Virus record (IMG/VR): IMGVR_UViG_2718218304_000003
Source: a virus
Taxonomy: Duplodnaviria; Heunggongvirae; Uroviricota; Caudoviricetes
DNA: 36,584 nucleotides
Reading direction: 5' to 3' (one strand)
Positions within the stretch are counted from its first letter, which is position 1; each line of letters begins with the position of its first letter. A program made the translations under genes and the position numbers. Under the pieces are notes generated by a model that saw only the letters and a list, made by a program, of their open reading frames with translations, did no database searches and had not been told where the DNA came from. Positions 10,145 through 34,568 of the stretch are shown piece by piece.

Positions 10145-10711
10145 TCAGGGGGATTCATTGCTCTTATTTGCCGGAAATTTTCTATAAATTGTGGAAACAC
10201 CCACATCAAAAATCAGTGCAATACGCTGTCTTGATTCTCCGGCCTCGAGTAAACGTCCAATCTGTGCCCACTTTTCGGTGGTCAACTTAGGACGGCGTCC
10301 ACCTACTCTGCCTTTAGCACGAGCTGCAGCCAGCCCCGCCCTGGTACGTTCAACTATCAGTTCGCGTTCCATTTCAGCCAGGGCCCCCATGACATGAAAA
10401 AAGAAACGGCCCATTGGGGTGCTGGTATCAATACTGTCAGTCAGGCTTCGGAAATTCACGCCACGCTGGCGCAGCTCTTCTATCAGCGTAACGAGATGCC
10501 GCATACTGCGCCCCAACCTGTCCAGCTTCCAGACAACCAGAGTGTCACCTGCCGATAATGTCCTGAGCAGTTTTTTCAGTCCCGGTCTGTCGGACTTAGT
10601 GCCACTGATTTTGTCCTCAAAAATCCGCTCACATCCCGCGCAGTTCAGTGCATTACGTTGCAAATCGGTGTTCTGGTCATTTGTTGACACGCGTACATAG
10701 CCAATAAGCAT
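10145..10711 (-). CDS. site-specific DNA invertase, serine recombinase (Gin/Cin/Pin/Hin family)
   Basis: N-terminal catalytic motif GYVRVSTNDQ and near-collinear match to Gin/Pin (VVWKLDRLGRSM, SPMGRFFFHVMGALAEMERELI); start moved to MLIGYV. Confidence 0.9.
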   Translation of the reverse strand: MLIGYVRVSTNDQNTDLQRNALNCAGCERIFEDKISGTKSDRPGLKKLLRTLSAGDTLVVWKLDRLGRSMRHLVTLIEELRQRGVNFRSLTDSIDTSTPMGRFFFHVMGALAEMERELIVERTRAGLAAARAKGRVGGRRPKLTTEKWAQIGRLLEAGESRQRIALIFDVGVSTIYRKFPANKSNESP

Positions 10712-10766
10712 GATCAATCCCCTGAATAAAAACCGGGGATGATGCCAGTTAGCTGTTACCTCTGCA

Positions 10767-10792
10767 TTTTCTTAAACGTTGGTTTGGGAGAA
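10767..10792. other. invertase crossover site (left inverted repeat)
   Basis: TTTTCTTAAACG-TT-GGTTTGGGAGAA; its 12-bp right half is the exact reverse complement of the left half of the site at 12297-12322; 12-2-12 layout as in gix/cix/hix. Confidence 0.6.
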
Positions 10793-11146
10793 GCGGCAAA
10801 ACGAAATGTGGGTAACGAGCAAAACCAAATTCCGGATATGGCGGCGTTTGCCAGTTCACTTTCATCAACGGGTTTTCAAAAACTCCCTTCAGGTCTGATT
10901 ATTCAGTGGGGTATAGTCAGTGGAGCATCAAACTATACGGTGACTTACCCGGTAACATTCCCAAATCGTTCACTTGCGCTGTTGGCTGTACCACATACAA
11001 CGTCGGTGGCGGGTATATCTGCAATGGGCATAGCGAACTGTTCTGATATCAGCAAATCACAGTTCTATATAATTGTTGGCGGTATATCTCAGGGAGAAAT
11101 TGTCAAATATGAAAGATCCTGTTTTTGGGTAGCAATCGGTGTATAG
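10781..11146 (+). CDS. silent alternative tail-fibre C-terminal segment (Sv'-like), expressed only after inversion
   Basis: Open frame runs through the crossover site (..GLGE..) and ends ..IAIGV like the current H C-terminus; shares LIIQWG with it; no own start expected. Confidence 0.55.
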   Translation, partial: GLGEAAKRNVGNEQNQIPDMAAFASSLSSTGFQKLPSGLIIQWGIVSGASNYTVTYPVTFPNRSLALLAVPHTTSVAGISAMGIANCSDISKSQFYIIVGGISQGEIVKYERSCFWVAIGV

Positions 11147-11154
11147 GTATATCT

Positions 11155-11550
11155 ATGATTTATTTCTCAAAATCGACTAATGGTTTTTTCTTCGATGGTA
11201 TAAACAGTGACATGCCTGCTGACATTGTTGAGATATGTACAGACTTATACAATGAATTAATTGCCGGACAGCAGGAAGGGGGTAAATTAATTACGTCAGA
11301 TGAAAATGGTTTACCGGTACTAAAATCCCCGGCGATTGATTATGTCGCACGTGCGGAAAATCAGCGAATGCAGTTACTTGCTCATGCCGATAATGTCACA
11401 GCTGACTGGCGAGTGGAATTAATGCTTGGTGATATCAGCAGTACAGATAAAGAAAAACTATCCGCCTGGATGGACTACAAAAAAGAAGTAAAAGCCGTCG
11501 ACACTTCGACGGCTCCTGAGATTAGCTGGCCTGAGTTACCGGAGGTGTAG
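11155..11550 (+). CDS. tail fibre assembly protein (U'-like, for the alternative fibre)
   Basis: Follows the alternative fibre end; C-terminus (DTSTAPEISWPELPEV) parallels the oppositely oriented chaperone; start moved to internal Met. Confidence 0.7.
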   Translation: MIYFSKSTNGFFFDGINSDMPADIVEICTDLYNELIAGQQEGGKLITSDENGLPVLKSPAIDYVARAENQRMQLLAHADNVTADWRVELMLGDISSTDKEKLSAWMDYKKEVKAVDTSTAPEISWPELPEV

Positions 11551-11959
11551 GCCATTCAATATCTGGAGCACTGGAGGTATCCACCAGTTCCAGTGCGTCC
11601 AGGTAATCCAGCCACAAATTATATAGTGCCAGTTCCTCACCTTTCAGACGACCAATAGCTGCTTTGCCAGGCCATTGCTTACTGTTCATGTATTCGTTGG
11701 CCTGATTAAGCAATAATTGCCTTTCTGTTTCTGCCTGTTGAATAAGTTCTTCATGTGATGGTGGAGGTATTAGTGCCCATGTGGGTAATCCATTTTTTCC
11801 TGCAACACGAATTTTGTCATCTGGGGGCGTATTGATTGCAAATTCATTATAAACATCATCACTGACAGCCAGAGCATCATCTGGCCATGAATTTGCATTA
11901 ATGTAATCATCCTTAAGCGCAGGATTCACAAAAATGTTTAAAGATGGACTATAAAACAT
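11522..11959 (-). CDS. tail fibre assembly protein (G/U-like)
   Basis: 145 aa immediately downstream of H; C-terminus (DTSSAPDIEWPTPP) typical of this chaperone family. Confidence 0.75.
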   Translation of the reverse strand: MFYSPSLNIFVNPALKDDYINANSWPDDALAVSDDVYNEFAINTPPDDKIRVAGKNGLPTWALIPPPSHEELIQQAETERQLLLNQANEYMNSKQWPGKAAIGRLKGEELALYNLWLDYLDALELVDTSSAPDIEWPTPPVTQAS

Positions 11960-24635: not shown

Positions 24636-25691
24636 TTAAAAATTATTTTCTTCAATAGAGAACTCAATCCCTCGGGATAACTTATCAATATTCACATCAA
24701 ATGCGATATCTGTTAATTCACCATCCTCGATTTCATACATAACTTCAATTTCAATATCGAAACTAATCTCTTGAACTTCAGTTCGTGTGGTTGTCTCCAT
24801 TGGAATCATTACTTTATCTTCGCTATCCCAATACCCATTATTAAAGTCTGGACCAGAAACAGTAACTTCAAAATCTACAGAAACAGAGAAGGTCGCTAGA
24901 CAATAATTATTGTCAATCTTAATTATTGATGGTTCAAAGTCATCAATATTGACGACTTCAAATGAATCCAATTCAGCGTCTTCCCAAGTTGAAACGTTAT
25001 ATCCATCGGCATCATTGAGTTGGGCAATTACGTCCGCTCTTATGTCTTCACGTTTGCTTTCGATAAACTGCATCAATTTATTACTTAATTCGTTTGTATG
25101 CGTATTGTATTCACCTAGAAACTTATCAAGTGAATCAATTTGATGAAGATTGTTTTTACCATCACAATAATTTTTTAAGTCACTATCCTCAGAAATGATA
25201 TACACATCTTCATCATTAACAAATCGCTCTACCGCAGCTAAAGTGATTGCATCAGGAAACTCACTTTTTTTCTTATTTTGCCCAAATGGTGGTTCTTTGC
25301 CAAAGTATTTATCTAAAACCTCATTAAGATCTATCACTTCTATTGTAGCTAATTTGGCGTGACATCCTTTCAAAAAATCATCAAAAACTTTTTGTGCTGC
25401 TTCGTGAATTTCATGTTCGTTAAATTGCTGAAAAAAACCATGGAGCGGTCCATTATCAATACTATTCAAAAGCCTAGCTTTTCTTTGTACTGTGTTTATA
25501 GCCTGCAGAGCATCCTTTATTGATTCCTCTATTTTACCTTTTACTTCTCTCTCTACAACTGTAGTTGTAATTAAGACTAAATCACCTTTCGCACATAATT
25601 CATGGAAAGCTTTAAATGCTACCCCCTCAAAATGAAGACCAGCCTTTACGTACGTTTGTGTGTCAATAAATACCTTATTTGTTTTAAGCAT
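24636..25691 (-). CDS. PIN-like domain protein with acidic C-terminal domain; candidate accessory/defence gene
   Basis: 351 aa; SD AGGA before ATG; N-terminus has PIN-style motifs (VFIDT ... VVERE ... IISEDSDL); C-terminal ~150 aa very acidic; AT-rich gene. Confidence 0.7.
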   Translation of the reverse strand: MLKTNKVFIDTQTYVKAGLHFEGVAFKAFHELCAKGDLVLITTTVVEREVKGKIEESIKDALQAINTVQRKARLLNSIDNGPLHGFFQQFNEHEIHEAAQKVFDDFLKGCHAKLATIEVIDLNEVLDKYFGKEPPFGQNKKKSEFPDAITLAAVERFVNDEDVYIISEDSDLKNYCDGKNNLHQIDSLDKFLGEYNTHTNELSNKLMQFIESKREDIRADVIAQLNDADGYNVSTWEDAELDSFEVVNIDDFEPSIIKIDNNYCLATFSVSVDFEVTVSGPDFNNGYWDSEDKVMIPMETTTRTEVQEISFDIEIEVMYEIEDGELTDIAFDVNIDKLSRGIEFSIEENNF

Positions 25692-25810
25692 ACTAATCCT
25701 AATAAGTTTTAAGATCCGCTACAATTGTTTATGTTTATTTTTTATCAATAATCATACGTAGTTAAGATTATCCATGTCGAAAAATTAAATCAACTTCAAT
25801 TTATCCTTAA

Positions 25811-25845
25811 GCGCGCGCTCGTATCCCCGCCACGCCTGCCCGCTT
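25811..25845. other. possible cos (cohesive end) region
   Basis: GC-rich block whose reverse complement reads GGCGTGGCGGGGA, resembling the P2/186 cohesive-end sequence as I recall it; expected between old/tin-equivalent genes and Q. Confidence 0.3.
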
Positions 25846-25881
25846 TATGTAGTGGTTTTCATGCAGGTGCATGACATAAGC

Positions 25882-25905
25882 AAAAGCCCGCCAGTTCTGG
25901 CGGGC
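25882..25905 (-). terminator. putative terminator after the two-gene accessory operon
   Basis: Stem GCCCGCC / GGCGGGC (25886-25892 / 25899-25905) followed on the minus strand by UUUU (25882-25885). Confidence 0.4.
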
Positions 25906-26050
25906 CTCAGCAAAAACGATCCTAAAACGATCATGCGGATTCATGCAGCATAGACATGCAAAGCTTGTTAGAACGGTGATTCCCATGTTAAAGGAGGCTT
26001 ACTCTTGTTGAGGTTAAACATCCACAGTAACTCCTGCCAATACGAACACT

Positions 26051-26587
26051 TTATTCATCATAGTGTTCTAATTTCGCTTTTGCTAAACGTCCATGTAAGT
26101 GATTAACAAAATGTAAATTATTCAAAATCAGGCTCATAACGCATTTTAATTGCATCCAGCTAATAAAGTAAATGAAGAAAATACCAATGTATTTAAACAA
26201 GTCTTTATTAGCTTGATAAACAGGTAATGCATAAAACACTGCCTTAACCAAAAAGAAAATTAGAATCCCAGCCATAACACAAGCAGATGTGATTATTGTA
26301 TAAACTAATTTCTCTATTCTTGGTGAGTCATGCTCATTTTTTATATAACTTACATCATCCTTAACAATACTATTCATTGCATTCGGATATAAAAAACCGA
26401 CCCATAAACCGACAATAGTGAATATAGATGCTGAAATATTTATAAGCGCACCTAAAATATCTTTTGCATCATTATAGGAAAAACTTTTGAACGAAAAATA
26501 GCTTATAACGCAGCACAAAACAACAGCAACAAAATTAATCGCCTGCTGTTTTGCAACTGTTATTATCAAACCTTCCGTTTCTGTCAT
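26051..26587 (-). CDS. 4-TM membrane protein, second gene of candidate accessory/defence operon
   Basis: 178 aa with four hydrophobic helices; ATG 1 nt after the stop of the upstream gene; SD GGAAGG inside upstream gene. Confidence 0.75.
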   Translation of the reverse strand: MTETEGLIITVAKQQAINFVAVVLCCVISYFSFKSFSYNDAKDILGALINISASIFTIVGLWVGFLYPNAMNSIVKDDVSYIKNEHDSPRIEKLVYTIITSACVMAGILIFFLVKAVFYALPVYQANKDLFKYIGIFFIYFISWMQLKCVMSLILNNLHFVNHLHGRLAKAKLEHYDE

Positions 26588-26588
26588 A

Positions 26589-27788
26589 TCAACCTTCCGC
26601 TATCTTTTTTGTGGATGCAGCTTCAGATTCTTTAATGGATGCTTCCTCAGCATATTTTACTTCACTAATCAAATCATCACGAATTTTGTTTATTTCATCC
26701 AGTAAAAAACGCGCTGAATAATGCTCAACCCCATCCGAATCTTGAAGAGGAAGTTTAGTCCTGGCTACATAGCTACTGAGCCAAACCGGATTAGCACGAT
26801 CAGCCAGTAAAAAACCCACATCCCATTCAGACTCTTCACCTCTCATTGAGAAGAGATTTCGAAGCTCATCCGATGATGGTGCACCGTCAATTTTAACTTC
26901 AATTTTACGAGGCTGCTCCAAAACAGGAGGTGCCCCAATAAGCTTATTACGCTTTTCTTCACCCACCAGAGATGCTAAAGCTACACTTGTTAGCTTCAAC
27001 AATGGTTGCCTTGTGTCATTTTGGTTTATTACCGTTGTATCCTTTATCAATGTGTGTGTAATTTTATGCCTTAACCTTTCAAAGTTTTCCTCAGCGGCTT
27101 TAAGTTTTGTTTCTTCCAATACAAACTTGAAGATACAGTTTATCTCATTTTTGCCATCTTTATATTGAAACTTAGTATTGTAGACATCCACACAACGACC
27201 AGGGGTCTTAGCTGATTCAAATGTACGCTTAGATTTCGTTCTTTTACCTAACTTACTATTATTATTTACATGCTGAATGAAGTATTGTGCGAAGAGATAA
27301 GTATCAGCGAAAGAATGGGGGAATCTGATTGATGCTATTTTATTCAACTCAGGAATAATCCAGTAATAGCAGGGTTCACCCCAAATTATTTTATCCTCAC
27401 CATGTTCTCTTCCCGCCCTAATGGTTCCTTTACTATCACCACTTACTTTAGAACCGACCTTAATACCATGTATTCCGTTACCGTTCCCCACTTCACGGTA
27501 TAAAACAATTACTGCATCTTTAGTCTGGCTGTCCCTCACAAGGCCTCGACTGTAAACTCGTGTTCGCAGAGGTTGTTCTTCTTTATTCCATGGGAGAGTC
27601 TGCTCAAAATTTTTATCCTTGAGCCACCCTTCTAAATCGTCCAAAACCCCCATAAGATCGCCGAATTTATAATCAAGCTCTTCGGGTTTATTCTTTAAAC
27701 GATAAAACCCACAAGCAGTAATATCAAAGAAGGTGATTGAGCCGTTGTCCACTAAAACTCCTTTTTGCCAAAGCAACACACGATACAT
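26589..27788 (-). CDS. unknown soluble protein, first gene of candidate accessory/defence operon
   Basis: 399-aa ORF, AT-rich, no family I can name; R-x4-H motif (RHKITH); translationally coupled to the membrane gene. Confidence 0.7.
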   Translation of the reverse strand: MYRVLLWQKGVLVDNGSITFFDITACGFYRLKNKPEELDYKFGDLMGVLDDLEGWLKDKNFEQTLPWNKEEQPLRTRVYSRGLVRDSQTKDAVIVLYREVGNGNGIHGIKVGSKVSGDSKGTIRAGREHGEDKIIWGEPCYYWIIPELNKIASIRFPHSFADTYLFAQYFIQHVNNNSKLGKRTKSKRTFESAKTPGRCVDVYNTKFQYKDGKNEINCIFKFVLEETKLKAAEENFERLRHKITHTLIKDTTVINQNDTRQPLLKLTSVALASLVGEEKRNKLIGAPPVLEQPRKIEVKIDGAPSSDELRNLFSMRGEESEWDVGFLLADRANPVWLSSYVARTKLPLQDSDGVEHYSARFLLDEINKIRDDLISEVKYAEEASIKESEAASTKKIAEG

Positions 27789-27994: not shown

Positions 27995-28228
27995 CTAGTG
28001 TAACCAGCTGTCGTCCTCCCAGACCTTCTGCATAATTTTCATCACTTGTTTTCTTTCTTCGTCCAGTTGCAGTCCGGTCAGTTCCACACCGTTAGAGCTA
28101 CCTTTGCGGATACGAATTACCGTTTTGGGATACAGGGGGCGCAGATTGCGGTAAAGCTCGGATTCAAGGGCGTCCAGTGTAGACTGGCTAATCTTCTGCT
28201 CTTTATCGATCATTATTTCAATGCGCAT
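27995..28228 (-). CDS. DinI-like protein (SOS-inducible; Tum-type antirepressor candidate)
   Basis: DinI-family similarity (MRIEI.IDK, LY.KTVIRIRKGSSNGVELTGL, ER, KIMQKVWEDD.W); start moved to MRIEI, preceded by SD GAGGTGA. Confidence 0.75.
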   Translation of the reverse strand: MRIEIMIDKEQKISQSTLDALESELYRNLRPLYPKTVIRIRKGSSNGVELTGLQLDEERKQVMKIMQKVWEDDSWLH

Positions 28229-28238
28229 AAAAGTCACC

Positions 28239-28427
28239 TCAGCTGATGACATCCATTGAGCGGTTGTATTCATGGGTTCTGATTTTTGCCATGAGTTCAT
28301 CTGTCAGTTCAGAAACCCACTGCAGGGCCAGCCCCTTCTCTTCATCACTACACTCACTAGCCGCTACAAGCTTAAGAAAAAAATCAATGCGCTGGAGCTT
28401 CAAAGACTCCAAAAAATAGTCCTGCAT
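28239..28427 (-). CDS. small protein, first gene of LexA-controlled operon
   Basis: 62-aa ORF with strong SD (GGAGGA) directly downstream of the LexA box; stop 10 nt before the DinI-like start. Confidence 0.5.
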   Translation of the reverse strand: MQDYFLESLKLQRIDFFLKLVAASECSDEEKGLALQWVSELTDELMAKIRTHEYNRSMDVIS

Positions 28428-28588: not shown

Positions 28589-30961
28589 TTAATACAGATC
28601 CCGCCACTTATCATCTTCCTGCAAACGCTGGTTCCGATAGAAGATACGCAGGCCTGCTCCTGACGGAATACTGCCACCGCGAAGGAGTAAATCGACCTCT
28701 TTCTCGCTGCCATCAAATCCTCTGGACTTCAGTTCATAGACGAGCTGCTGTCGCTGATGATCTGTAATTCGCTGTTTGTAGTCTCTACGCCGTTTCGGTT
28801 TCACCAGGCGTAACCTTGCAGCCAGTTCCCGGCGCTCTTTTTTGTTCATACTGTGCAGGTAATCGTGCAATTCCTTGTCATCCATGCGGGTGATATCCGT
28901 TCTGGTATCCCCATCAGCTGATTTGTCTTTCCCTTGTTGGTACAAATTTTCAGCAAGGGGACAGTTATTGCCACGAGTCCAAGGGGCGCAAGCGCCCTGG
29001 TCGGCTGCCGCCTCCTGAACATCAACGGCCTTACGAACCATTTTCCACTTCACGGCATGAGTGCAGATCTTGCCCTCTGCAATAGGTGACCAGATGCCAT
29101 AAATACGAATGCCGTGATCGCCATAGGCGGTCGGCTCTTCGTTGATTTCATAAGCGGTTCTGATGAGGTGATATTTGCGGGGAACCAGTACGCCGCCCTG
29201 CTTCATGATGTAGGTGGCAAAACAACCAGCATCAGCAGCAGCCAGGATGGCATCAAGGCGCGGGTTATCCAGTACCGGCGCACCTGCTTTTTTGTCCCCC
29301 TGTTGCCTTGCCGCCTGACCAGCCAGCAATCGCAGTTCACGGTAAGCCTGACGCCCCGGAATGCCAAAGAAGCGGAATTGCTGAACACGATGCAGAGACG
29401 CCCAGGCATTAACGTATTCAGCATTATCACGCAGGGATTTCCCCGTTTCCTTGCTGATCTCGCCAGCCAGACCACGCCCGTCAATGTTCTTACTGATGTA
29501 TTTCGCGATGTAGCTTGTTGGCGTACCTTTGCGCGGGTTAATCAACTCAGACTTAAAGCGCGGCCCAGTGTTATTGCCCAGTTCCTCGCGGTCTTCACGG
29601 ATGGCAAACTTACGCAGTAATGCAGTGATGGCGCGGCGGTCTTTTTTGCGCATAAAACACAACAGGTGCCAGTGAACTGTACCGTCATGATGCGGCTCAG
29701 CCACCCGCACGCCATACCACCGCAATCCGGCTTTGTGCATCGCCTTACGAAATGCAGCAAACATGCCGACCAGATAATCACTGCTTTGTCTTACCGTCGC
29801 ATTTGTCCAAGTTGGGTTGGGCCTGCCATTATTTAGCGTGGAATGGAAACGTGACGGACAGGTGATGGTGTAGAAAACGGCGCAGTCACCGCGCATTTCC
29901 GCGATAAGCTCCAGGCCTTTAACACAGGCCATCATCTCATTGCGGCGATGCGCAGGGTTGCTGCTGCTGGCGTTTACCACATCCTCCATGTCCAGCGTGT
30001 CGCCGTCTTCGTTCACCAGTTCATGAGAACGAAAAAACTCCAGCGACTTACGGCGCTGCTCGCGTTTATGCATCACGGCTTCATAGCTGACATAGGGAGA
30101 TGCTTTTTTGCTGACCAGGCAGACAGCACGCAACTGCTCTTCCCGCCATTCACAACGCATCTTCCATAATTTCCGGTACCACCAGTCAGCGCACAACATA
30201 CGCGCCAGCGAACCCGGAATGAGTTCATAGGGCACGGGTTTACGGCGGTTTCTTTTCCGGCGGAGTTGCTCAAACGCAGGCGGGATGACATCCAGACGCA
30301 GGGTTTCCGCTGCCACCTTTTCCCATGTCTTGCGGATTTCTTCTGGCTTAACGTCATCGGTGACATACAAATCGCCACAAGCTGCATCAAGGCACATGCT
30401 CATATGCGCAGCTACCAGGGTGGACAGGCGTTTCACCTGATCCTGACTCATTTCAGGCAGGATCAGCAGGCCGTCCAGCCCTTCATGGCTTGCCATAAAG
30501 CGAAAAGAAGTGGATAGCTGACAGTCGCGTACATGCTCCAGCCGTTCCAGACATGGCTTAATCGTTTCACGCAAATAGCGGGAATAAGCCTTTGGCCTGC
30601 CCAGGCTGCTGAAGTATTCAATACGTTGCATCAGTGGCTTGCTGATATGGGAAGGCTGGGCATTGACGTCCGCCAGAATGACCATATCTGGATTAAAACG
30701 CTGCTGCTCATGCGCCAGCTTTGCCCGACTAATGAGCTTATCCTGCTCCATTTCGCGCTGGACAGGATCACGGGATTCATTAAAGAAATAACGCTCCCAG
30801 ACCTGATCACTCAGTGCCTCGCGGCGCAGCTGTTCCTGCTCGTTATCGGCAGCGTACAGAGCGATCAGGTTTGAAAGCGCAGAAACTGAAGATTGCTCTT
30901 CTGTCTCTACGTAAGGATTGATTGCTTTTTTCTCAGCATTCCAGGAATAGCTGTAGTTCAT
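28589..30961 (-). CDS. A: replication initiation endonuclease gpA (rolling-circle)
   Basis: Conserved P2 A motifs [12 protein letters not shown] and [12 protein letters not shown]; start moved to the ATG whose A is shared with the upstream TAA stop, giving 790 aa. Confidence 0.9.
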
Positions 30962-31791
30962 TACGCAATCTCCAGTTCGAGCTGTGAAGGCTGCAAACCA
31001 TTCGACAGCCAATCAGAAACTGAAGGTGGGCGAACAGCTTCAATTGCACCTTTTAAAATTGCGCAACGGTTTTTCAGAATGACAGCTTTCAGCTCCTTTT
31101 CCGTCAGATTGCGCGAATACTCAGCCTCCTGAATAGCCCGCGTCAGCTCAGGATATTTGCTATTAAATTTGGGGACATTGCAGGCAAGATTTGTACTGTC
31201 GGCAGTCGCCAGTGGGTAATTTCCCAACACACGACCGTCAAGCATGCGCAAACCATGAACAGCTGTTTTGAAATTGTGTCGGCAATAAATTGCTTCAAAA
31301 GCGTCCTGCATACGACGATGCCAGTGCGCAGTTCTGATAGCCGCATATTCACCAGACGATCCAAAGCAGACACGAGGCCATTCACGACATAGCTCGATAA
31401 GCCGATCGATTGACTCGTGCAGATGCCAGACGGGAGTTGCCTTCCCGTAGAACATTTTCGGAACTTCGTTTATCAGGGCATCATTGTCACGTTCACCTCC
31501 GTCCACAACATCAGGAATGACAAAAAAAGCGACCTTAGGATGGTGGTAATAGTTCAGGAGCCATTTATAAAAATCACTCCAGTTAATTTTTAGCCCACGC
31601 ACCCATGCAGAAAATGCGCCGTTATCAATGCCGACGACCTGAGCGTGCTGAATGGACGCCGCAATCTGATCTGGTCGTACATAGGAGACGAAAGCGCCAG
31701 CTCCGCTCACCGCAATACGATGAACGTCGCCAGCACTTCCCCAGACAGGCGTCCCATGGAAATGATGAATTCCGTGGTGCATTTCTTTCAC
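30961..31791 (-). CDS. hypothetical protein coupled between dam and A
   Basis: 276-aa ORF (GTG at 31791 or ATG at 31782); overlaps dam stop and A start; no family recognised. Confidence 0.65.
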
Positions 31792-32642
31792 ACTTGCACC
31801 CCGAAAATAACAGTAGAGTCACGTCCCCTACTAAAATCGGCACTAAACCAATTAGCAGATTTAGTGGCAATCATCTCTGTTGCAAATTTTCCCTCCCCCG
31901 CTGCAACGCCGATGCTGCGTTTCGCCCTGATGTAGTGGTGAGTGAAATTACGATAAAGGGACCGGGTCAAAGACGTGTTACTGTTAGAAACAATGACCGG
32001 ATGTCCTTCTGATGACCGATGTTCAAGAATGGATGCCAGGTGATACTGATCATCTTCAGTGAAACCATCAGTGTGATAGCCGGAAAACGTACCGTCATAA
32101 GGCGGATCGCAATACACCACATCCCCCACCTTCAACATCGCCAGCGTTTCATCAAAGCTGGCGCAGATAAACGTTGCCCGCTGGGCTTTCTCTGCAAATG
32201 CGCGAATTTCTTTTTCAGGGAAATACGGATTTTTATAATTACCGTAGGGAATGTTGAAATGCCCGCTCTTGTTATAGCGACATAAACCACGGTAACCGTG
32301 ACGATTGAGATACAGGAAATATACCGCTTTCATGAAATCAGTAATTTCAGTGGAGTAATTAAACTCCTGCCTTATGTTGTAATAAGCCACCTCCCTGTTT
32401 GCTTCCTCAAATAAAGCTCTGGCACGAGATATAAACGCCTCACAATCAGCAGCAACCTTTTTATAGAGGTTGATTAAATCAGGATTAATATCCGCAACAA
32501 GATAGCTGGGGTAATCCGTCTCCATCATCACTGCACAGGAACCCGCGAAAGGTTCAACCAGTCGCGGGCCAGCAGGAAGATGCTTTTTCAGTTCGGACAT
32601 TATGGCGGTTTTATTTCCTGCCCATTTCAGGATGGTGCTCAT
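31788..32642 (-). CDS. dam: DNA adenine methyltransferase (Dam family)
   Basis: LKWAGNK, EPFAGS and DPPY motifs; collinear with E. coli Dam; start moved to internal Met preceded by SD GGAGGTG, overlapping upstream stop (ATGA). Confidence 0.9.
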
Positions 32643-32866
32643 ACAGCACCTCCGTTGTAATGTTTGCCTTTCAGCTCTGCGATTTCCTGACAGGTAATGC
32701 AAAGCTGCACACCCGGAATGGCACGGCGGCGTGCTGGCGGAATTGGCGCTTCACACTCAACGCAAAGCACGCGGGACACGCCCGGCGTTTTGGCACGGGC
32801 AGCACGGATATGGCGTTGGCGTTCTTCTTCAACGCGCTGCTGTACGAGATCCATTGCATCAGCCAT
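32639..32866 (-). CDS. TraR/DksA-family C4 zinc-finger protein
   Basis: 75 aa with CVEC...CITC four-cysteine finger. Confidence 0.7.
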   Translation of the reverse strand: MADAMDLVQQRVEEERQRHIRAARAKTPGVSRVLCVECEAPIPPARRRAIPGVQLCITCQEIAELKGKHYNGGAV

Positions 32867-33166: not shown

Positions 33167-33508
33167 TTAATTCGGCATGGTTAGCCGTCTGGGAAATAAG
33201 CTCACCACTGCACGAAAATGATTCATTGCTTTAATCAACTCCCGCTTTTCGTCAGTGGTCAGCTCATTAATGCTGATGCTATGACGTTCAGCTGGAATTT
33301 TTGCCATAAAGAATATGGCAGCCAGTGCCCGTTTATTTTGTTCATTATTGATATCCCGAGGATCACGCATATCTTTAATAAACCGCTCAAGCTCTGACTC
33401 AATATTCAAACCAAAAACTTTCGCCCTTAACTCCGCAATATGATTAAGTCCATTCAGGCGTTCACCGGGTCTTAATGGAACAGTCGCCGCAGCGCCTTCA
33501 ATAGCCAT
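33167..33508 (-). CDS. hypothetical protein
   Basis: 113-aa ORF in the early operon. Confidence 0.5.
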   Translation of the reverse strand: MAIEGAAATVPLRPGERLNGLNHIAELRAKVFGLNIESELERFIKDMRDPRDINNEQNKRALAAIFFMAKIPAERHSISINELTTDEKRELIKAMNHFRAVVSLFPRRLTMPN

Positions 33509-33672
33509 TTGTTCCCCCGTTTTTTCGTAGATAGTTCTGCCAGCAATTCATCTTGTGAACGGCACGGATGCCAGCGTTTACCATCCTCACCCATGATCCA
33601 GCCGTGACCGTAGTGCATTGCCGGACTTTGTTTTACCAGCAGCGATGCAAATGATGGTTCTTTCGTCAGCAT
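33472..33672 (-). CDS. hypothetical small protein
   Basis: 66 aa from internal Met; directly downstream of cII; start and reality uncertain. Confidence 0.35.
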   Translation of the reverse strand: MLTKEPSFASLLVKQSPAMHYGHGWIMGEDGKRWHPCRSQDELLAELSTKKRGNKWLLKALRRLFH

Positions 33673-33679
33673 AAGCACC

Positions 33680-34189
33680 TCACAGCAAACCGAATGAAGC
33701 ACCGAGGCCAGTCACGGTATCAACTGCACTCGCCATCGCAGGATTAGCCTGTAAACGGGCCTGCAATGAAACAGCAGCCAGCGCCATCAGTCGTGTAACA
33801 GAGTTAATGCTGCTGATCGCATCACGACGGCCTGCACTGGTTTTTACATCGCCAGAAACCGCACCTGCCGCGACACGCCCTATCTCTGCAGTTGCACTCA
33901 TGACGTAATGCGGCAGTTTCTCTTTTGCCACCTCATTAATCGGTACACATGGCAGGCAGTGAATCTGTGCCAGAAAGCCATCTACCAGCGTTGAATCTTC
34001 AGTCAGATCGGTAAGCAACCAGATTTCTGGTGCGGTTAATAAATGAGGTTGAGCTGGGTTCAGCTTGTTCCGCAGAATCTGCACATTCATGCCTGCACGT
34101 TCTGCCAGTTGCACTAGGTTGTGGCGCAATGCGAATGCACGACAGGCTTCATCAAAATGTGGATGTTTGGAAACTTGGTAATCAAACAT
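33680..34189 (-). CDS. cII: CII-like transcriptional activator (phage 186 type)
   Basis: 169 aa from [11 protein letters not shown], matching my recollection of 186 CII length and N-terminus; follows apl. Confidence 0.65.
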
Positions 34190-34443: not shown

Positions 34444-34568
34444 GATGCAACATTCCTCGTTTAATGATGATTAATCAGGACGAATACGGATCGTTTGTAT
34501 TTTGTGAACACCATAAACATACGATCGCACAGTGAAATCGTCAAGATAAAAGTTCACTTGGAGTGACC
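34444..34568. promoter_or_regulatory. lysis-lysogeny switch region
   Basis: 125-bp divergent intergenic region between apl and cI with repeated GTGAA/TTCAC motifs; operators not resolved. Confidence 0.4.

Follow-up and report, generated by a model that had tools for sequence, protein, structure and literature searches.

The window analysed here, the 36,584 nucleotides of IMG/VR virus record IMGVR_UViG_2718218304_000003, is a complete 186/P2-like Escherichia coli prophage lying between host ybjL and the phage integrase. Its minus-strand early operon contains a 276-amino-acid open reading frame (30961–31791; stop codon TAA at 30963–30961) that carries the RefSeq label 'hypothetical protein'. 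Our comparisons indicate that this gene, dpdA, probably encodes a 'singleton' DpdA, that is, the enzyme of a DpdA-only phage, of the kind that swaps guanine in DNA for a 7-deazaguanine base. Shown directly are its place in the family, an active site that is intact, purifying selection on the gene and its position in the operon, together with the lack of a pathway for the base in the phage and the presence of queC in the host; re-annotation of the RefSeq entry is warranted.

The protein matches phrog_887, 'queuine tRNA-ribosyltransferase', over residues 2–275 (E = 2.4e-96). A tblastn comparison with GenBank phages revealed 75.7% identity to gp38 of Salmonella phage SEN1 (Eganvirus, 186-like), 54.7% to the DpdA of Pantoea phage MED16 (gp38) and 34% to that of Salmonella phage 7-11 (gp032), with about 40% identity also to proteins of the lambdoid or P22-like phages BTP1, SfI and SPN3UB. 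When a profile of 71 relatives (diverse family members of 27–59% identity) was aligned with the DpdA of phage CAjan, the two matched across residues 48–205 (hhalign probability 98.7%, E = 2.7e-16). Supplementary Data 1 of Hutinet et al. 2019 (PMC6884629) places SEN1 gp38 (YP_009217891) among the proteins of DpdA-only phages, and SEN1 gp38 and SW9 gp39 are the closest viral homologues of MED16 DpdA (Simoliunas et al. 2021, PMC8306585). The DpdA-only family, including its occurrence in a P2-like phage, has already been catalogued, and the gene described here is a further member; it resembles SEN1 gp38, SW9 gp39, MED16 gp38 and 7-11 gp032 in length (about 260–276 amino acids) and in its invariant residues. 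A first-pass annotation of the window had left the gene unassigned, with no recognisable family, a view that the PHROG match and the prior listing of SEN1 gp38 overturn.

The open reading frame is a genuine gene under purifying selection. It has 4313 homologues at E ≤ 1e-5, and 555 representatives of 50%-identity clusters match it at E ≤ 0.001; the ratio of non-synonymous to synonymous substitution rates is 0.03–0.07 against homologues of 78–84% identity, with synonymous sites saturated. RefSeq starts the protein at an ATG at 31782 (273 amino acids, WP_001420002.1), nine nucleotides downstream of the GTG at 31791 used here. The ATG of homologues aligns with this GTG, which favours the 276-amino-acid form.

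Within the wider family, deletion of dpdA in CAjan abolishes dPreQ0 (PMC6884629). MED16, whose only pathway gene is dpdA, has DNA that holds dADG at 354 per 10^6 nucleotides together with N6-methyldeoxyadenosine (m6dA; PMC8306585), and phage 7-11, likewise with dpdA only, has dADG at 50 per 10^6 nucleotides (PMC6884629).

Active site and predicted fold

Six columns are invariant among the 71 relatives (71/71 each): D56, D94, H123, H179, D198 and S199. Asp56 (codon at 31624–31626, minus strand, as are all codons given here), in the motif IDNGAFS, is the predicted general acid/base; it corresponds to CAjan Asp63, whose published role is that of general base, and to Asp95 of the Salmonella Montevideo DpdA. 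Asp198 (31198–31200; motif TADSTN), which is followed by the invariant Ser199, is the predicted catalytic nucleophile and corresponds to CAjan Asp206, the published nucleophile, and to Asp256 of the bacterial enzyme. Mutation of either Asp95 or Asp256 in the crystallized bacterial DpdA kills guanine exchange (PMC10164549). The base pocket of CAjan DpdA is formed by Ser64, Phe67, Asp105, His132, Gly153/154 and Phe189 (PMC7544227); F60, H123, G144 and L181 of our protein align with Phe67, His132, Gly153 and Phe189, respectively, and are conserved, with His123 (31423–31425) as the predicted pocket histidine. Asp94 (31510–31512; motif IPDV), a third aspartate invariant in the clade, is predicted to recognize the base and is plausibly the equivalent of CAjan D105 and bacterial DpdA D130.

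An AlphaFold2 model (pLDDT 89.8) is a (β/α)8 TIM barrel in which the invariant residues lie at the C-terminal ends of strands, D198 at the end of strand 196–199 and D56 at the end of strand 52–56; the C-terminal 70 residues are predicted to form helices. Structure comparison gave figures of 16.0 for Cap10, 14.8 for bacterial DpdA (7UI4), 14.1 for ArcTGT, 13.3 for bacterial tRNA-guanine transglycosylase (TGT) and 12.8 for QTRT2, but generic TIM barrels followed close behind (13.5), so that the fold alone is supportive and not decisive. Foldseek matches in the PDB were weak; named matches in BFVD were nearly all phage 'queuine tRNA-ribosyltransferases'. The first-pass annotation had proposed hidden Markov model and structure searches, and these led to the phage DpdA/queuine tRNA-ribosyltransferase family and a TIM barrel while matching no replication-accessory family. 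Its guess that the protein is a DNA-modification or anti-restriction accessory rather than a methyltransferase gains support from the homology to phage DpdA and the intact active site. By analogy with the characterized enzymes, the protein is likely to be a minimal TIM-barrel member of the TGT superfamily that acts on double-stranded DNA.

With DpdA1 of CAjan and 9g (Queuovirinae, PMC7544227) it shares a homologous core, the general-base and nucleophile aspartates, residues that align with the pocket His, Phe and Gly, and the predicted reaction, a post-replicative base exchange in double-stranded DNA. It differs from them in overall sequence (about 20% identity), in the C-terminal region and in a three-residue offset of the third aspartate. 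The S. Montevideo enzyme (PDB 7UI4, PMC10164549) is larger, at 413 amino acids, with a structural Zn site and the sizeable insertion Ins8; it depends on the ATPase DpdB, and its gene is part of a dpd island of 11 genes. The protein studied here shares none of these features, and its gene has only phage early-gene neighbours. An identity as bacterial DpdA of the Dpd restriction–modification island was rejected on its length, on the missing Dpd match in PADLOC and on the lack of a Cys cluster.

Several observations weigh against a DpdA identity. Scans of the protein with Pfam, NCBIfam and PADLOC (including its Dpd models) gave no match, and PDB sequence searches by phmmer and profile hmmsearch returned nothing or one chance match to a coat protein; the RefSeq label stems from the silence of these searches. 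Neither the protein nor any of the 71 aligned relatives matches the Pfam TGT family PF01702 above the gathering threshold, and hhalign of the family profile against one E. coli Tgt sequence gave no signal. No cluster of cysteines is conserved among the 71 relatives, which means that they lack the structural Zn site found in TGT and bacterial DpdA. In the hhalign alignment, CAjan Asp105 stands opposite D97, which is variable in the clade, with the invariant D94 three residues earlier. Among related E. coli prophages with dam, the gene next to dpdA, about 92% lack dpdA. The singleton-DpdA phages tested so far have at most trace modification, amounting to 0.02% of G in 7-11 and 0.13% in MED16, while Orion has none; what was detected is dADG and not dPreQ0, by a route that is unexplained (PMC6884629, PMC8306585), and none of the restriction enzymes tried on MED16 DNA was detectably hindered (PMC8306585).

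The PHROG and GenBank name of the family, 'queuine tRNA-ribosyltransferase', raises the alternative of a TGT-superfamily enzyme with a non-DNA substrate, either tRNA, as for Tgt and ArcTGT, or a protein N terminus, as for Cap10 of type IV CBASS. We consider this very unlikely, given the homology to the genetically validated CAjan DNA enzyme and to the DpdAs of phages with modified DNA. A tRNA-guanine transglycosylase was rejected on the PF01702 and Tgt comparisons above; unlike Tgt and ArcTGT, the 276-amino-acid protein lacks the Zn subdomain with its motif, the N-terminal lid and the C-terminal RNA-binding domains, its predicted substrate is DNA, and E. coli already has Tgt. A Cap10-like protein modifier was rejected as well: identity to Cap10 (PDB 9NTN, whose title describes a complex of Cap10 and the NDG-modified CD-NTase CdnD) is 10%, and the genes expected beside Cap10, which encode an effector, a CD-NTase and a QueC-like Cap9, are missing from the operon of dpdA, nor does the prophage hold any other CBASS gene.

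The slot upstream of the replication initiator

The early operon runs on the minus strand in the order cox/apl-like gene, CII, Fil, DUF5347, DUF2732, TraR/DksA, Dam, dpdA and A. Upstream of dpdA lies dam (31788–32642), which encodes a D12-class N6-adenine DNA methyltransferase of 284 amino acids (PF02086, E = 2e-76; PADLOC orphan methyltransferase, E = 6e-110), preceded by a TraR/DksA-type zinc-finger gene (32639–32866; PF01258 zf-dskA_traR, E = 4.4e-11); downstream lies the replication initiator gene A (28589–30961; PF05840 Phage_GPA, E = 1.2e-127), 790 amino acids from its ATG at 30961. The unbroken coupling chain described by the first-pass annotation is confirmed by the junctions as read in the sequence. 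The traR stop (TGA, 32641–32639) and the dam ATG (32642–32640) form an ATGA overlap, with GGAGG 8 nucleotides upstream, and the dpdA stop and the A start (ATG, 30961–30959) form TAATG with one base common to both. The dam stop (TGA, 31790–31788), said earlier to abut the 276-amino-acid start, does adjoin it, but as a GTGA overlap with the GTG at 31791–31789, or with a 5-nucleotide spacer if the RefSeq ATG is used.

Coupling to the downstream gene is the constant feature of this position. Among 80 IMG/VR relatives of at least 71% identity, dpdA overlaps the next gene by stop and start in 80/80 (27 TAATG, 53 ATGA), and that gene is A in 78; dam stands upstream in 49, and the loci without it include SEN1 and most of those of 80% identity or less. 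In SEN1, also a 186-like Eganvirus, dpdA likewise immediately precedes A, but a 92-amino-acid open reading frame stands where the window has dam. The same 186-like synteny was found in 7 of 10 genome or phage loci; the others follow NinB in a lambdoid nin region or belong to other temperate phages.

In 5426 complete E. coli genomes, dpdA is present in 103 (about 2%), the adjacent dam in 1238 and a match to the operon in 1348. Strains D9 and D4 are identical to the window (100%) over 6 kb, and ATCC 8739 carries dpdA at 99.9% identity. The early region of the E. coli B REL606 prophage (NC_012967.1, 881538–889313) is about 95% identical but lacks dpdA, and its dam is ATGA-coupled directly to A. 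A blastn comparison of the window with this locus lost homology at 31867 and regained it at 30883, placing the recombination breakpoints within dam, 79 nucleotides before its stop, and within A, 78 nucleotides after its start. The segment between them (30884–31866) is a 983-bp cassette comprising the last 79 nucleotides of dam, dpdA and the first 78 nucleotides of A, and it replaces 198 bp of the REL606 prophage. The cassette thus supplies the 3′ end of dam and the 5′ end of A itself. On these comparisons, dpdA is an accessory module that always plugs in immediately upstream of the initiator, and not a fixed partner of dam. The earlier claim of a fixed dam–dpdA–A placement therefore holds for the coupling to A, whereas dam is upstream in only part of the relatives and in REL606 runs straight into A.

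The invariant overlap with the downstream gene could mean that the protein is an accessory to initiator A in replication and takes no part in base modification, which is the least probable reading we considered. The protein has no similarity to any replication protein family in Pfam, PHROG or NCBIfam, and a replication-accessory role would leave the conserved transglycosylase active site unexplained; moreover, near-identical prophages of the REL606 type replicate without dpdA, and the same protein occurs after NinB in lambdoid nin regions and in temperate phages with different replication modules.

The accessory, patchy distribution of dpdA also invites the idea of a prophage defence or exclusion factor that excises or exchanges bases in the DNA of superinfecting phages, such as the 7-deazaguanine-modified Queuovirinae. 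P2-like prophages are rich in defence cargo, a candidate PDC-M18 system lies 3 kb away, and 7-deazaguanine-DNA glycosylases are a known defence class (10.1101/2025.10.29.685425). The position of dpdA speaks against this idea: inside a repressor-controlled early lytic operon, coupled to A and with no promoter-like site of its own, the gene should be silent in the lysogen. In addition, PADLOC gives no match for the protein, and the known anti-7-deazaguanine glycosylases came to light through structural kinship with DNA glycosylases and not with TGT (10.1101/2025.10.29.685425). We regard a defence role as highly improbable.

The whole chain is probably driven by an early promoter at the one sigma-70-like match (34516–34544, minus strand) that precedes the first early gene. 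Although a consensus match only, it is the sole one on the minus strand from the cox/apl-like gene to the end of A and is consistent with a single operon. Sigma-70-like matches in the region number 3 against a mean of 7.8 in shuffled sequence, which makes the promoter evidence weak. Within the accessory cassette, a terminator-like hairpin with a T-rich tail (31811–31833, minus strand) lies inside the dam 3′ end, about 20 nucleotides upstream of the dpdA start; it is weak (3 G–C pairs), and such sites are no more numerous in the region than in shuffles.

Source of the base and methylase fusions

The window holds no folE, queD, queE, queC or YhhQ-like transporter gene; a tblastn match of CAjan QueD (E = 0.009, 38 amino acids) inside a baseplate gene was judged to be due to chance. 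As in other singleton-DpdA phages, which have no genes of the preQ0 or G+ pathways and whose hosts have the queuosine pathway, the base must come from the host, and queC is present in 5425 of the 5426 complete E. coli genomes. The DpdA of 9g alone, expressed in E. coli, puts host preQ0 into DNA. CAjan and 9g, which have 25–32% of G modified, own folE, queD, queE, queC (or gat-queC) and a transporter, whereas members of the host-reliant singleton clade reach at most 0.13% of G where measured.

Gene fusions point to the same chemistry. A metagenomic phage-like contig encodes a QueD::DpdA fusion (P0209, L103:2840–3847; PTPS, PF01242, E = 1.2e-24), which, as judged from sequence, is a Rosetta-stone link of the DpdA clade to preQ0 biosynthesis. 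Fusions of DpdA to a D12 Dam-type methylase were found in a Rosenbergiella locus (L014:5977–7710; 577 amino acids, 62% identical) and in P0272 (L100/L101:6001–7728; 575 amino acids, 38% identical), and a fusion to an MT-A70 methylase in P0274 (L102:721–2172; 483 amino acids, 59% identical). The starts of the P0272 and P0274 fusion genes are overlapped by genes for Vut_1/YhhQ-like membrane proteins of 155–157 amino acids (L100:5564–6031 and L102:275–748; PF02592, 40 and 38.6 bits) that resemble CAjan gp41, a 'putative preQ0 transporter' (E = 7e-8 and 7e-6). From this arrangement, the two loci look like preQ0 salvage modules of DpdA-only temperate phages. The independent fusions to adenine methylases and to QueD support a role of the clade in DNA modification, and those to methylases hint at a functional link between the two enzymes. 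Our literature search found no paper on DpdA::adenine-methylase fusions or on experiments with P2-like DpdAs, and the recurrence of these fusions may be a new observation.

Two further candidates were set aside. P0011 (421 amino acids, on a 36.6-kb Logan contig from another E. coli assembly) joins Dam 1–192 in frame to DpdA 48–276 at about 100% identity, as expected of an internal deletion, and is probably a pseudogene or an assembly artefact; P0273, a DpdA with a 300-amino-acid extension, looks like the product of a deletion or frameshift.

These fusions bear on an alternative in which the protein is an active DNA transglycosylase but not a general anti-restriction factor, working instead with the phage adenine methylase to lay down a sparse, site-specific composite mark, for example at or next to GATC or GA sites. 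Such a mark might tune Dam methylation, allow escape from methyl-dependent nucleases, or affect gene expression, replication or packaging. In its favour are the D12 Dam-type fusions in two lineages and the MT-A70 fusion in a third, dam adjoining dpdA in the window and in the 49 relatives noted above, the adenine methylase gene 1.2 kb upstream of dpdA in MED16, and the overlap of the known DpdA motifs GA and GGC with GATC; the CAjan queC deletion has 10-fold more m6dA, and the trace dADG of MED16 (PMC8306585) gave no restriction protection. Adjacency to dam is not enriched in E. coli, however, where dam is found in 1238 genomes against 1348 with an operon match; since most of these prophages carry dam anyway, we rejected adjacency as a sign of a functional link in this species and count only the fusions. 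Furthermore, 31 of the 80 close relatives, SEN1 among them, have no adjacent dam, DpnI still cut MED16 DNA (PMC8306585), and the fusion of two DNA-modifying enzymes may reflect co-expression only. We consider this alternative rather unlikely. The corresponding form of the module, in which DpdA and an adenine methylase (separate here, fused in at least three lineages) would make a sparse dual mark of 7-deazaguanine and N6-methyladenine (m6A) at GA/GATC-type sites that are shared or adjacent, drawing on host preQ0 alone, is likewise put forward as a doubtful proposal. If it is true, a dual mark, and not bulk hypermodification, would defeat particular defences or tune the DNA transactions of temperate phages.

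Proposed reaction and prophage surroundings

On the preferred reading, that of a singleton DpdA, we propose the following course on the model of TGT and of the DpdAs of bacteria and CAjan. The gene would be transcribed in the early lytic operon of this 186-like member of the Peduoviridae, with its translation coupled to that of the rolling-circle initiator A, so that DpdA would be made during phage DNA replication. A target guanine would be flipped into the barrel pocket of F60, D94, H123, G144 and L181, where Asp198 would attack C1′ and displace the guanine, giving a covalent enzyme–DNA intermediate. Asp56 would then deprotonate N9 of an incoming 7-deazaguanine base, presumably host preQ0 or a close derivative, and the intermediate would be resolved, the base being inserted post-replicatively in lytic growth. 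Progeny DNA would then hold dPreQ0 or dADG, thinly spread and probably confined to a motif, beside the m6A of Dam. The likeliest benefit would be evasion of some host restriction or defence systems, an advantage that we consider probable but unproven. This scheme infers from the characterized relatives how the reaction runs, which base is inserted, how densely and at what motif the DNA is modified, and how the phage benefits.

The role of DpdA in DpdA-only phages has been open since 2019, with at most trace dADG and no protection shown, and the examples tested were all lytic phages whose hosts are less tractable. With a close member now placed in an E. coli prophage of the 186-like type, and with the near-isogenic REL606 version without dpdA, this role becomes testable by genetics. 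In laboratory strains of E. coli the two prophages form a clean, naturally occurring plus/minus pair, which may not have been described before.

Other features of the window concern the prophage as a whole. A DinI-like (Tum-like) gene (27995–28300) and a Fil-family gene (33472–33702), with CII/CP76, mark it as 186-type and not P2 sensu stricto, and it is probably SOS-inducible. Between the portal gene and the DinI/A region, a cargo segment (24636–27788, minus strand) encodes a 351-amino-acid PIN_12 protein (PF16289, E = 1.6e-25). It also holds a candidate defence system of two genes, PDC-M18A (399 amino acids, E = 4.5e-31) and PDC-M18B (178 amino acids, E = 2.7e-18). The segment matches the position of the variable cargo slot of P2-like phages, which in P2 itself is the tin/old position. 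Last, at 10145–11959, a gene for an invertase-type recombinase adjoins oppositely oriented fragments of tail-fibre assembly and gp53-like genes, an arrangement that suggests an invertible segment for tail-fibre host range.

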